The notes beneath the pieces were generated by a model. The model saw nothing but the letters and a program-made list of their open reading frames with translations, ran no database searches and had not been told where the DNA came from. Shown here one piece after another: positions 16,444 through 22,622 of a stretch of DNA of 53,007 nucleotides. A program made the position numbers and the translations under genes. Source of the stretch: a virus. Its lineage: Duplodnaviria; Caudoviricetes. The stretch lies in the IMG/VR virus record IMGVR_UViG_3300020045_012277, positions 1 through 53,007 of that record; one strand, given 5' to 3'. Position 1 is the stretch's first letter. Each line of letters begins with the position of its first letter.

Positions 16444-16476
16444 CAAATATACAAAACAATATTTCGTGTTTCCAAA
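16444..16476 (-). promoter_or_regulatory. Bacteroidota sigma-A-type promoter for the cro/early operon
   Basis: Minus strand TTTG-N21-TATATTTG. Confidence 0.7.
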
Positions 16477-16492
16477 TATTTTACGAAATATT
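16458..16492. promoter_or_regulatory. Putative repressor operator (inverted repeat)
   Basis: AATATTTCGT-N15-ACGAAATATT overlapping the early promoter. Confidence 0.55.
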
Positions 16493-16528
16493 TTTCCAGT
16501 TTTTATTTCGCATGAAAATCAATTACTT

Positions 16529-17242
16529 GTGAGTAGGCCAGAAGAAATTTTAAGAATTGCAAGAGAAAAAGCTCGTTATACACAAGCTGAAATATCAGAG
16601 AAATTAGGTATTTCCAGCAGGCATTATCAGAATATTGAAGAGGGAAAATTCCCAAAATTTAAGGGGGATATTATTAAGAGTATTGATAAGTTACTCAACT
16701 TACATCTTTACGAAATAATTTATGAACAAAAAGTTCCACGTGAAGTCGGTCATCTTGAATTGCAGGAAGATCAGCCCGCCTACTTTCAGGACCACAAAAC
16801 CCGTTCCCGGTCAATAAGGCTTAATCTTAAACACGGCAGTAAGCCTATCCCGGTTTTCAACGGCAAAGCCTCTGCTGGTTCCATACAGCTTGTAAATGAT
16901 GAGCCTGAAGTTATCCTGGGATATATAGATTATCCGGAAATAGGTCGTACAGATGGCACGGCAGAGGTAGTAGGGCATAGCATGTACCCTACCTTCAGCA
17001 ACGGCACCAGGGTAGCCATAAAAAAGGTTGAAGATTTCGACATGCTGGTTCCCGGCAATTACTACTGGTATATAGATAAAGAATTTAACGGCTATGTAAA
17101 AAGACTTGGCAGAAAGATGAAAGAAGGTATTGTTACCTGGTTCAGCGACAATCCGGATCAGGATAAATTCCCGCCGTATGACATTAAGCTGTCAAAGGTG
17201 CTGGCGGTTTTTAAAGTGGTGGCTGATGTAAATAAGAGGTAA
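16529..17242 (+). CDS. cI: CI-like repressor (XRE HTH plus S24 autopeptidase)
   Basis: LRIAREKARYTQAEISEKLGISSRHYQNIEEG; VVGHSMYP (Ser) and YVKRL (Lys); GTG at 16529 preferred over the ORF-track start 16466. Confidence 0.9.
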   Translation: MSRPEEILRIAREKARYTQAEISEKLGISSRHYQNIEEGKFPKFKGDIIKSIDKLLNLHLYEIIYEQKVPREVGHLELQEDQPAYFQDHKTRSRSIRLNLKHGSKPIPVFNGKASAGSIQLVNDEPEVILGYIDYPEIGRTDGTAEVVGHSMYPTFSNGTRVAIKKVEDFDMLVPGNYYWYIDKEFNGYVKRLGRKMKEGIVTWFSDNPDQDKFPPYDIKLSKVLAVFKVVADVNKR

Positions 17243-19106: not shown

Positions 19107-19340
19107 TTTACTTTAACAGGAAAATTAATTTAGCTGATTGTCATTGTAGTTGTGAAAGAAATGAGCGACCCGTCCGGTCCGCACACATACACTCTCACAA
19201 TTACTTGATGGTCAACTAACACGTTGGCCATCCTCCTTTTAAGGGAGACACTCCACCCGATTTTAAAACACAGGAAGGCACACAAAGACACAGGAAACAC
19301 CCCTGTTTACTTTAACATGCCAAGAACATTTACTTTAACA
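19107..19340 (+). other. attP region (core, arm-type repeats, phased accessory sites)
   Basis: CCCGTCCGGTCCGCA at 19169-19183; TTTACTTTAACA at 19107, 19306, 19329; ACACAGGAA at 19268, 19288; directly upstream of integrase. Confidence 0.7.
19207..19240 (+). terminator. Hairpin after att core (possible replacement tRNA terminator)
   Basis: GATGGTCAAC-N6-GTTGGCCATC then CTCCTTTT. Confidence 0.5.
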
Positions 19341-19355
19341 TTTTAAAACTTAAAC

Positions 19356-20561
19356 ATGGAGAACATCAACACATTCCCGATGATTTACAAACACCGGATC
19401 AACTCAGCCGGCATGGTTCCAATTGTCATTTGCATTACGATCAACAACAAACCCGTGGCCTATGAGCCACTGCACAAAAGAGTATTGCTATCCGATTGGG
19501 ATCCTGAAAAAAGAAAAGTAAAAGACGACCTGCTCAATTCGCTTATCAAAAAAAGAATTGCGGAGTTGGAAGAGATCTTTATAAAAAAGATGCTGGCTGA
19601 TGAAAGCATCACCGGACCAATGGTAAAAAAAATACTGGCCGGCGAACATCAGCCGAAAAACTTCTTTGAGTATGCTGAATACATCATCAATAATAAAACT
19701 CTTGCGGATGGATTACCGTACAATGATGACACCAGGCGCCGGTATCGTGATGAAATTAAAAGACTGAAGCAATTCCAGCCACATCTCTTTCTTTCCGATA
19801 TAACTACACCGTTCCTTAATCAGTACCGCAAATGGCTGCTAAATGATTACAGGAAGAAAGATAAAACCAAACTTCACAAGAACAGCATCTGGAAAACATT
19901 CGGATTCATCCGCATGATCTGGCGCTGTGCCGACAAAGACCGATTGGTGAAGCATGAAAACAATCCTTTTCAAAACTTTGAAGTGGGATCCTTTGAAACT
20001 GACCTGCAGAAAATAAAGTACCTTGAACTGAGCCAGCTCGAGATAATAGAACAAACACTCATCACTAAAGAATCACTGATGGATCCTTTTACGATTAGAG
20101 TAGGGTGGCGTTTCCTGGCCATGTGCGTGTTTGGCTTACGAATAAGCGATGCCATGAGATTGGATGAAGGATTTATAAACGATGCCGGTTATCTTGATTT
20201 CACTCCATTCAAAACACGCCGGCACGGTAACACTGCACAAGTGCCCATTGTAAACGACCGGCAAAAAAGATACCTGAGTAAAACATTTGAACTTCCCTTG
20301 CCCGCAAAGAATCATAAATCATTCAGAACGGACTTTAATGATCACCTGAAAATAATCACTGCCATGTCGGGAATCTCTATTCATCTTACATCACATGTGG
20401 GTCGTCATACTATGGGATCTTTCCTGGTTGATGGTGATGTAACGGAAAAATCAGCAATGGTGATGCTGGGAGTAAAAAGCGATCGGGTAATAAAAACGTA
20501 TATGCATTTGAAACAAAGTAAGCTTATTTCGGAGGCAAATAAACTCAACAATGTAATGTGA
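19356..20561 (+). CDS. int: Tyrosine integrase with N-terminal arm-binding and SAM-like domains
   Basis: FGLRISD (R), FKT (K), SHVGRHT (HxxR), TYMH (Y); Bacteroidota-type N-terminus. Confidence 0.93.
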   Translation: MENINTFPMIYKHRINSAGMVPIVICITINNKPVAYEPLHKRVLLSDWDPEKRKVKDDLLNSLIKKRIAELEEIFIKKMLADESITGPMVKKILAGEHQPKNFFEYAEYIINNKTLADGLPYNDDTRRRYRDEIKRLKQFQPHLFLSDITTPFLNQYRKWLLNDYRKKDKTKLHKNSIWKTFGFIRMIWRCADKDRLVKHENNPFQNFEVGSFETDLQKIKYLELSQLEIIEQTLITKESLMDPFTIRVGWRFLAMCVFGLRISDAMRLDEGFINDAGYLDFTPFKTRRHGNTAQVPIVNDRQKRYLSKTFELPLPAKNHKSFRTDFNDHLKIITAMSGISIHLTSHVGRHTMGSFLVDGDVTEKSAMVMLGVKSDRVIKTYMHLKQSKLISEANKLNNVM

Positions 20562-20994: not shown

Positions 20995-21186
20995 GGCCTG
21001 ATTTAACTGTCAGGCGACAGCTTGAAAAACCGTGTCCTTATTTTGTGCAACCTGGACATGGAAACTTGAAAACGCCGGTTGGGTGGTAAATCACCTTTCC
21101 CTTTACAGTTATGTAAGGAGTGAAGATGAAACCATCACAACAACGACCTTTACAGGTTTTTTTGTATGGATCTGACATCAAAAAAA

Positions 21187-21259
21187 TGCTCCCGTCGGGA
21201 TTCGGACCCGAATTTCACATCTTAGCAGGAAGGCGTTCTATCCGTTGAACTACAGGAGC
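21187..21259 (-). tRNA. Atypical tRNA, anticodon GCT (Ser) on a short-variable-arm, Arg-like body; possibly degenerate
   Basis: GCTCCTG TA GTTC AACGGATA GAAC G CCTTC CT GCT AA GATGT GAAAT TCGGG TCCGAAT CCCGA CGGGAGC A; acceptor, D and T stems pair, anticodon stem 3 of 5. Confidence 0.8.
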
Positions 21260-21269
21260 GAAACAAGCT

Positions 21270-21301
21270 AAAGCCTTGACACGAAAATGTCAGGGCTTTT
21301 T
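21270..21301 (+). terminator. Hairpin with T-tract
   Basis: AAAGCCTTGACA-N6-TGTCAGGGCTTT TT. Confidence 0.55.
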
Positions 21302-22017: not shown

Positions 22018-22191
22018 TTAGGTGAATCTCCTGCTAAGCCTTTGGAATAATTCAGATGCAATTAATGCTCTTATTGTAGTTCCATTTAATTCGATAACAG
22101 TTTCATTCGGCTTCGCCTCATACTCACTGCGTTCGTTCCTAAGAAATTCTTTATTAAGAGTGTCCCCAAATAAGGATTTTTTCCGCTTCAT
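22018..22191 (-). CDS. Hypothetical 57 aa protein with hairpin-enclosed start
   Basis: MKRKKSLFGDTLNKEFLRNERSEYEAKPNETVIELNGTTIRALIASELFQRLSRRFT. Confidence 0.5.
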   Translation of the reverse strand: MKRKKSLFGDTLNKEFLRNERSEYEAKPNETVIELNGTTIRALIASELFQRLSRRFT

Positions 22192-22229
22192 TATTATTGA
22201 TGACAGCGCAGAAAAAATCCTTATTTGGG
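22165..22229. repeat. Perfect 19 bp inverted repeat, 27 bp spacer
   Basis: CCCAAATAAGGATTTTTTC (22165-22183) and GAAAAAATCCTTATTTGGG (22211-22229). Confidence 0.9.
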
Positions 22230-22622
22230 CACATGGTATGTCTTCTTATAATTGTCGTTATGTATAAATAGGCGCACACAGCATCCCTTCACGTTGTCGT
22301 TATAAAAAACTTACGACAACGGCTAACCTAAATAACATAACGCATGACTATAAGTAAAGGGAAAACTTGTTTATAATTTTAACTGTACCAGTGAAGAAAT
22401 TTTTTCCAGAGGGTACTATTTTTGCATCAGATTAAATCAAAGAACTATTAACGATCCCCAAGAGCCGACAAACTTCTGGGGATTGTTCTTTTACAAAGGT
22501 AGAACCAATGCATACTTTTTTTCTGCAGTTTCATTCATATTATATCCACAATTGGTAGAAAGTTTTTTTTAAAGTAAAAATTCTTAGCAGCAAAAGAAAT
22601 CGTTATTTTCGCACTCGCAAAT

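Follow-up and report, generated by a model that had tools for sequence, protein, structure and literature searches.

A phage-encoded tRNA with an arginine-type body and a serine anticodon belongs to a recurrent class

In this study we analysed a complete virus record of 53,007 bases with direct terminal repeats (IMG/VR record IMGVR_UViG_3300020045_012277; the whole stretch is hereafter called the window) and describe its single tRNA gene, which is a structurally sound gene of the arginine type with the serine anticodon GCU and a member of a recurrent class. The gene is a real phage-borne member of the tRNA-Arg(NCU) lineage that has G as the wobble base (position 34), and it is cargo in the integrase-proximal region of the phage. 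We tentatively read it as a kept, arginine-charged tRNA of this lineage with a purine at position 34. To our knowledge, natural tRNAs in which identity and anticodon disagree are rare, and the bacterial cases known to us come with a dedicated synthetase. If our reading is true, these genes form a natural class of tRNAs with mismatched identity and anticodon that is carried by viruses. A virus-borne class which uses the host arginyl-tRNA synthetase (ArgRS) against serine codons would open a new path, either to regulated mistranslation or to a tRNA-based conflict between phage and host. There is also a practical side, as pipelines naming tRNAs by the anticodon alone call these genes tRNA-Ser, a label that is very likely wrong.

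Structure and amino acid identity of the GCU tRNA

ARAGORN called the gene as tRNA-Ser(gct), and the Rfam tRNA model RF00005 matched all 73 nucleotides with 52.5 bits (gathering score 29, E-value 9.6e-10). The anatomy was taken from the reverse complement together with the Infernal alignment. The acceptor stem has seven base pairs, all of them standard and one of them G-U, the D stem is paired at four of four positions, and the T stem at five of five. The D loop AACGGAUA contains the motif GGAUA and places an A at position 20. It is followed by the anticodon loop CUGCUAA, a variable loop of five nucleotides, the T loop UCCGAAU and the discriminator A73; CCA is not encoded. U55 is near-universal in tRNAs, and the GCU tRNA has C55 in its place. 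The anticodon stem carries two mismatches, C27.U43 and U29.U41. Judged as a possible pseudogene, the tRNA is thus weakened in the anticodon stem only, and the acceptor, D and T helices are intact. The cloverleaf described in the initial annotation, with its length of 73 nucleotides, anticodon GCU, five-nucleotide variable loop, A20 and discriminator A, was recovered by ARAGORN, Rfam and Infernal, and the two anticodon-stem mismatches and the unusual T loop noted there are present as well.

The body of the tRNA is of the arginine type, as had been proposed from the sequence alone. Its 21-nucleotide D-arm word is present in 64 IMG/VR loci, and all 63 tRNAs which ARAGORN called on this word were tRNA-Arg (34 tct, 24 cct, 4 tcg and 1 acg). 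The identity set of the E. coli type of ArgRS comprises A20, C35, U or G at position 36 and A or G at position 73, whereas bacterial seryl-tRNA synthetase (SerRS) requires the long variable arm of class II tRNAs and G73. By this rule, the GCU tRNA has all arginine elements (A20, C35, U36 and A73), and with its five-nucleotide variable loop and A73 it lacks both serine elements. Nevertheless, the anticodon GCU reads no arginine codon, for which NCG or YCU would be required (N, any base; Y, pyrimidine). A nearest-neighbour comparison by overall identity with 391 distinct viral tRNAs was non-discriminating, since the best tRNA-Arg reached 0.79 and was tied with one tRNA-Ile. Assignment to arginine is thus based on the D arm, together with the known identity set of ArgRS.

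The closest phage tRNAs in GenBank, at about 75% identity, are annotated as tRNA-Arg in seven of eight records, the eighth being that of Streptomyces phage Sham (L193, GenBank ON645339). We considered the tRNA-Ser of Sham as a second case and rejected it, as the note in the record gives the anticodon tct. This record labels tct as tRNA-Ser and acg as tRNA-Thr, both of them annotation errors; in phage Annadreamy the homolog is given as tRNA-Arg(tct). Those occurrences of the D-arm word that had no tRNA call were, as far as displayed, truncated 5' copies of tRNA-Arg followed by unrelated sequence (L139, L144 and L181). A complete tRNA-Arg stands about 128 nucleotides from the truncated copy in two of these three loci, a layout that integration junctions would produce.

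Compared with the tRNA-Arg(UCU/CCU) genes encoded by phages, the GCU tRNA shares the D arm, identical in 63 viral genes, the short variable loop and the four arginine elements. It also resembles them in being the only tRNA of its phage, as is often the case for these genes, and some ordinary members have C55 and a mismatch at 29:41 too. However, the wobble G makes it match the serine codons AGC and AGU instead of AGA and AGG. With bacterial tRNA-Ser(GCU) it has in common the anticodon loop and the codons to be read, but neither the long variable arm nor G73, and its D loop is of the arginine type. Genuine long-arm tRNA-Ser(GCU) genes were seen in two related loci and look quite different from the tRNAs with an arginine body. 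In both loci they adjoin an Arg-body ACU or GCU tRNA, at a distance of 21 nucleotides in L272 (2085-2271) and of about 330 nucleotides in L216 (2113-2603).

Recurrence of purine-34 tRNAs with an arginine body

The initial annotation had allowed that GCU might be a private mutation, with all relatives carrying CCU or UCU. This is not the case, as Arg-body tRNAs with GCU or ACU were found in 41 other loci and the window tRNA groups with them. When IMG/VR was scanned for anticodon GCU combined with an Arg-type D loop, a T loop and a short variable region, 22 loci were returned. Ten of them are short-arm GCU tRNAs called by ARAGORN, several with flawless helices, and the remaining 12 are tRNA-like cores without an acceptor stem. 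These acceptor-less cores (L195, L197-L200, L202, L203, L205, L210, L212, L213 and L215; e.g. L197 280-321) combine the loop CTGCTAA with a well-formed T arm and a D arm of the arginine type, and occur in two variants with a compensatory difference in the T stem. A second scan, with C55 fixed and position 34 left free, gave 36 loci (19 tct, 11 cct, 3 act, 2 gct and 1 uncalled), so that five of the 35 called Arg-body tRNAs with C55 have a purine at position 34. C55 was rejected as a marker of the GCU class, as the other 30 have UCU or CCU.

Searching for the D-arm type together with RCU (R, purine) yielded four viral and 37 metagenome loci besides the window. Of these 42 loci 41 were parsed, and L277, which is cut by the contig end, was left out. 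The resulting purine-34 family comprises 36 distinct sequences including that of the window, 17 with A34 and 19 with G34, and 15 of the 36 have C55. The window tRNA shows what defines this class, namely an Arg-type D arm, an RCU anticodon, a short variable loop and intact acceptor, D and T helices. The contigs of the family range in GC content from 0.30 to 0.64. An ACU member is also present in the complete genomes of three other phages. It is the only tRNA found by Rfam in two of them; in the third (G002) it was found by ARAGORN in the 12-kb stretch examined, where Rfam found none. In G002 (L255 5970-6077) about 16 nucleotides of complementarity between leader and trailer extend the acceptor helix of the ACU tRNA. 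Complementarity of this kind was observed at one locus and rejected as a general feature of the class. A few sequences of the family are evidently defective (L260, L266 and L282/L291). The purine-34 pattern was not found in 401 genomes of the phylum of a Woeseiaceae metagenome-assembled genome and five others, none of them from Bacteroidota, a result that does not amount to absence elsewhere.

Across the 36 distinct sequences, unfiltered, the helices differ in their constraint. Non-canonical pairs occupied 19 of 252 cells in the acceptor stem, 0 of 144 in the D stem and 6 of 180 in the T stem, but 48 of 180 in the anticodon stem. Each paired helix position shows three to six canonical pair types within the family and therefore many compensatory differences. 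For a comparison with ordinary relatives, 87 distinct Arg-body tRNAs passed one common filter, 42 of them with a purine and 45 with a pyrimidine at position 34. Anticodon-stem mismatches were far more frequent in the purine-34 tRNAs (29 of 42 versus 8 of 45; Fisher p 1.4e-6), and the 29:41 mismatch followed the same direction (18 of 42 versus 3 of 45). This excess is partly a lineage effect, because 7 of 23 ordinary UCU and CCU tRNAs that share the D arm are mismatched as well. One mismatched anticodon arm is common to tRNAs with quite different acceptor stems, another was found with both G34 and A34, and within one sub-lineage, whose acceptor, T and D arms are identical, all differences lie within positions 26-48.

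In a tree of the 87 sequences, built from 72 columns with position 34 omitted, the window tRNA lies within a group of 24 rows which all have a purine at position 34. Five of the 24, including the window, come from the viral collection, and none of the 44 viral pyrimidine-34 rows falls inside the group. The purine/pyrimidine label requires 12 changes on the tree, whereas shuffled labels required 29.2 on average and never fewer than 22 (0 of 500 shuffles as low). The change to a purine also arises sporadically, because other purine-34 tRNAs are scattered among ordinary tRNA-Arg on the tree. As similar genes recur in dozens of viral and metagenome contigs, the window tRNA may be an oddity that has been retained rather than just a defective gene.

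Possible roles of the GCU tRNA

In the integrase and the capsid protein of the phage, the codons AGC and AGU (AGY) are read as serine. The integrase has seven AGY codons, four of which lie at columns where 20, 25, 26 and 29 of 29 homologs have serine; S264 is serine in 29 of 29 homologs. At the 14 AGY codons of the capsid gene, the homologs have serine or threonine in 206 of 360 cases and arginine or lysine in 7, and at its AGA and AGG (AGR) codons they have arginine or lysine in 108 of 145. Likewise, in the transposase genes next to related tRNAs, which are open reading frames (ORFs) similar to those of insertion sequence (IS) family IS1, AGY aligns with TCN serine codons. Over 74 window ORFs, AGY makes up 476 of 1,109 serine codons and AGR 341 of 595 arginine codons. 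Because AGR is abundant and AGY is conserved serine, a UCU tRNA would be useful to the phage and an efficient arginine-inserting GCU tRNA harmful.

The window tRNA belongs to a purine-34 set (GCU or ACU) that recurs in phages, IS-linked modules and unassigned metagenome contigs and that keeps its acceptor, D and T helices by compensatory changes, whereas midway along the anticodon stem its pairs are usually non-Watson-Crick. Our preferred reading is as follows. The host ArgRS would charge the GCU tRNA, since A20, C35, U36 and A73 are present, and SerRS would reject it for want of the long variable arm and G73. In the ribosome the tRNA would pair with AGC and AGU, so that arginine would be inserted in place of serine. 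Given a weak anticodon helix and a phage that reads AGY as serine, the gene would most likely yield an attenuated missense tRNA acting at a low level and kept for some benefit. We infer that decoding, if any, is inefficient, giving low-level Ser-to-Arg missense, or that the RNA acts off the ribosome. It is possible, though rather doubtful, that phages and IS-linked modules in general maintain ArgRS-charged tRNAs with anticodons for AGY (GCU/ACU) on a deliberately weakened anticodon helix. Such tRNAs would serve a programmed low-level Ser-to-Arg missense during lysogeny or infection, or would, in arginylated and non-decoding form, interfere with a host function directed at tRNA.

Arg-body tRNAs with a GCU or ACU anticodon were not found in published descriptions; supplementary tables, which our search did not cover, might list such genes. 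Among the publications found, the nearest concept is the tRNAProX family with its own synthetase ProRSx, deliberate-mistranslation tRNAs of Streptomyces and other bacteria (PMC10404621; reviewed in PMC11415595). Likewise, tRNAProX shows a natural disagreement between body and anticodon and has been retained in genomes, and some of its members have A34. It has a proline identity and a dedicated synthetase, whereas the window tRNA has a predicted arginine identity, no accompanying synthetase, and phages or mobile elements as carriers.

Several observations weigh against the preferred reading. Efficient insertion of arginine at AGY would damage conserved serine positions of the phage's own proteins, and the share of AGR among its arginine codons fits an ancestral UCU tRNA lost to mutation. 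The minimum free energy fold of the GCU tRNA contains the acceptor, D and T arms only, and the anticodon stem is not formed (-22.7 kcal/mol, z -1.59; 12 of 200 shuffles fold equally well). The exact anticodon arm of the window occurs in no other locus, and the nearest relatives are just 75-79% identical. Anticodon-stem mismatches are not exclusive to the purine-34 set, given the eight ordinary YCU tRNA-Arg that carry them. The group of 24 rows has a value of 82 in the Shimodaira-Hasegawa-like approximate likelihood ratio test (SH-aLRT), below the starred level, and the starred branches alone force 3 changes of the label. In addition, the metagenome scan asked for purine-34 only, so that pyrimidine-34 relatives which might split this group were not fetched. 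The scan pattern also fixed C32, U33, C35, U36, A37 and A38, and conservation of the loop can therefore not be judged. No RNA run with this locus is listed among the sequencing runs, and a TAnnTTTG motif of the Bacteroidota type was not found within 261 nucleotides upstream of the tRNA.

Some of these points would also be expected if an ordinary phage tRNA-Arg(UCU or CCU) for AGA and AGG had been inactivated by the wobble G and by damage to the stem, leaving a neutral or slightly harmful relic. Besides the two mismatches, the anticodon stem missing from the predicted fold, the AGR codon share, the lack of a canonical promoter motif in the stretch searched and an anticodon arm seen only in the window, such a decay is favoured by the clearly broken family members and by the purine-34 tRNAs scattered among YCU tRNAs on the tree, which indicate that the change was repeated. 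However, the damage is limited to one arm and leaves the acceptor (7/7), D (4/4) and T (5/5) helices intact, the same pattern is seen in 36 distinct relatives, whose other helices show compensatory changes, and 24 purine-34 tRNAs group together although they include both A34 and G34. Moreover, a purine in five of the 35 called Arg-body tRNAs with C55 is a high share for a mutation of a lethal type. The initial annotation had itself cautioned that the stem mismatches and the T loop may mean decay. These features are present, but ordinary phage tRNA-Arg can also have C55 and stem mismatches, and in the purine-34 class both are common. Overall, we consider a decaying gene somewhat unlikely but a serious alternative.

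A different explanation is a tRNA which is made and perhaps arginylated but acts off the ribosome, as a decoy or inhibitor of a host nuclease or defence directed at tRNA, as an arginine donor or as a regulator. A weak anticodon helix would keep the RNA out of translation, and misreading of AGY would be unaffordable for the phage. The anticodon stem is the sole variable and mismatched helix, and the sub-lineage in which only this stem differs while the other arms are identical shows what would be expected of a contested recognition surface. One viral locus even holds three tandem Arg-body tRNAs with aberrant anticodon loops. Furthermore, phage tRNAs with altered anticodon loops have been proposed to escape host anticodon nucleases (PMC10264068). 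Those tRNAs are also phage-borne and have unusual anticodon-arm features, but they keep the cognate anticodon and can replace a cleaved host tRNA, whereas the window tRNA cannot read arginine codons. Against a non-decoding tRNA stands that no conserved nuclease, defence or partner gene adjoins the family, whose recurring neighbours are transposases, and that the carrier phages hold no replacement tRNA-Arg. A decoy of tRNA-Arg would need no purine at position 34, and mimicry of tRNA-Ser(GCU) would leave the ACU members unexplained. We regard a role off the ribosome as unlikely, though it too is a serious alternative.

That the GCU tRNA is an ordinary tRNA-Arg with position 34 misassembled or misread in sequencing is very improbable. 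G34 of the window rests on one metagenome assembly. One freshwater-sediment DNA run contains a small share of the locus and gave a contig of 151 nucleotides over 21086-21236 with four differences, in which no junction was seen. It is the only other contig that covers the anticodon and has three unlisted differences near its end; because only one of its four differences is listed, it speaks neither for nor against G34. The same combination is present, however, in 36 distinct sequences from many contigs, and the anticodon-stem mismatches and C55 are shared with the purine-34 class too. A change of the genetic code, by which the phage or its host would read AGC and AGU as arginine with the GCU tRNA as the cognate decoder, has its one argument in the combination of a serine anticodon with an arginine body, and it was rejected, with a negligible chance of being right, for the integrase, the capsid and the IS1-like ORFs beside related tRNAs, where AGY stands at conserved serine or threonine positions or matches TCN serine codons.

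Carrier phage, attachment site and neighbourhood

The coordinates of the tRNA and of the other features are given in Table 1. From its gene content, we infer that the carrier is a temperate siphovirus-like phage of a Bacteroidota host. Besides the integrase and the repressor, the window encodes a tape-measure protein, an HK97-type major head protein, a portal protein and a large terminase, and its GC content lies between 35 and 46%. The integrase has 93 homologs, two of which are from named genera (Ferruginibacter and Segetibacter), and one relative of the capsid comes from Pedobacter. The capsid relative P0095, encoded on a contig of 60,393 nucleotides, is 72% identical, and the integrase relatives P0002 and P0003 reach 65% and 60%.

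Table 1. Position of the GCU tRNA and of selected features in the window (HTH, helix-turn-helix; attP, phage attachment site)
Feature	Coordinates	Strand	Basis and remarks
tRNA gene (Arg-type body, anticodon GCU)	21187..21259	minus	ARAGORN and Rfam RF00005
Anticodon GCU (tRNA positions 34-36)	21224..21226	minus	plus-strand letters AGC
Hairpin of 9 bp followed by a T run	21273..21301	plus	read from the sequence; 14 nt upstream of the tRNA 5' end (minus-strand sense)
Tyrosine integrase, Bacteroidota type	19356..20561	plus	Pfam Arm-DNA-bind_5, Phage_int_SAM_5, Phage_integrase
cI-like repressor (HTH and S24 peptidase)	16466..17242	plus	Pfam HTH_3, Peptidase_S24; indicates a temperate lifestyle
Candidate attP core, 16 nt identical to the 3' end of tRNA-Asp(gtc)	19169..19184	plus	comparison with the L192 prophage

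The integrase and tRNA genes are convergent, and the stop codon of the integrase lies 626 bp from the 3' end of the tRNA. A tRNA whose 3' end faces the integrase gene is an arrangement common for tRNA-targeting integrases, which would fit an attP copy of a host tRNA gene that is kept for integration and not for its RNA. We nevertheless rejected the GCU tRNA as the attachment site and give this explanation next to no weight, since a copy of a tRNA-Asp 3' end was found upstream of the integrase gene instead. This 16-mer is unique in the window and lies 172 bp upstream of the integrase start. In a prophage whose integrase is 50% identical (L002/L192), a full tRNA-Asp(gtc) ends with the same 16 nucleotides at nearly the same spacing, 176 bp upstream of the integrase start, and in three more relatives the sequence begins precisely with the integrase gene, as it should in proviruses cut on this side. 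Thus, the phage probably integrates into a host tRNA-Asp gene. In line with this, the 3' half (26 nucleotides) of the GCU tRNA had no match in IMG/VR, and a reference-genome scan with the T arm and acceptor pattern gave at least 120 loci which, among the matches listed, were unrelated tRNAs, mostly archaeal tRNA-Glu, with no host tRNA.

The surroundings of the related tRNAs differ from those in the window, as no window ORF matched the flanks of 13 related viral loci. In five of the 41 parsed loci an IS1-family transposase-like ORF follows the tRNA after 90-150 nucleotides on the same strand, behind a palindromic motif, and in five others an IS1595-family transposase lies near the tRNA. The ten loci are L257, L270, L274, L279, L288, L243/L289, L256/L280 and L267. 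Terminal inverted repeats were not found around the units of tRNA and IS1-like ORF. Among the ten largest ORFs from ten metagenome loci four matched PHROGs, so that for many members of the family a viral origin is putative. The tandem array mentioned above (L208 12958-13186) consists of one tRNA with GCU, one without U33 and one with an eight-nucleotide anticodon loop.

Two further structures were seen in the window. The hairpin upstream of the gene is terminator-like for transcripts arriving from the integrase side and was not listed by the consensus scan. Finally, an inverted repeat of 26 nucleotides at 22161-22233 is 92% complementary and gave spurious microRNA matches in Rfam.
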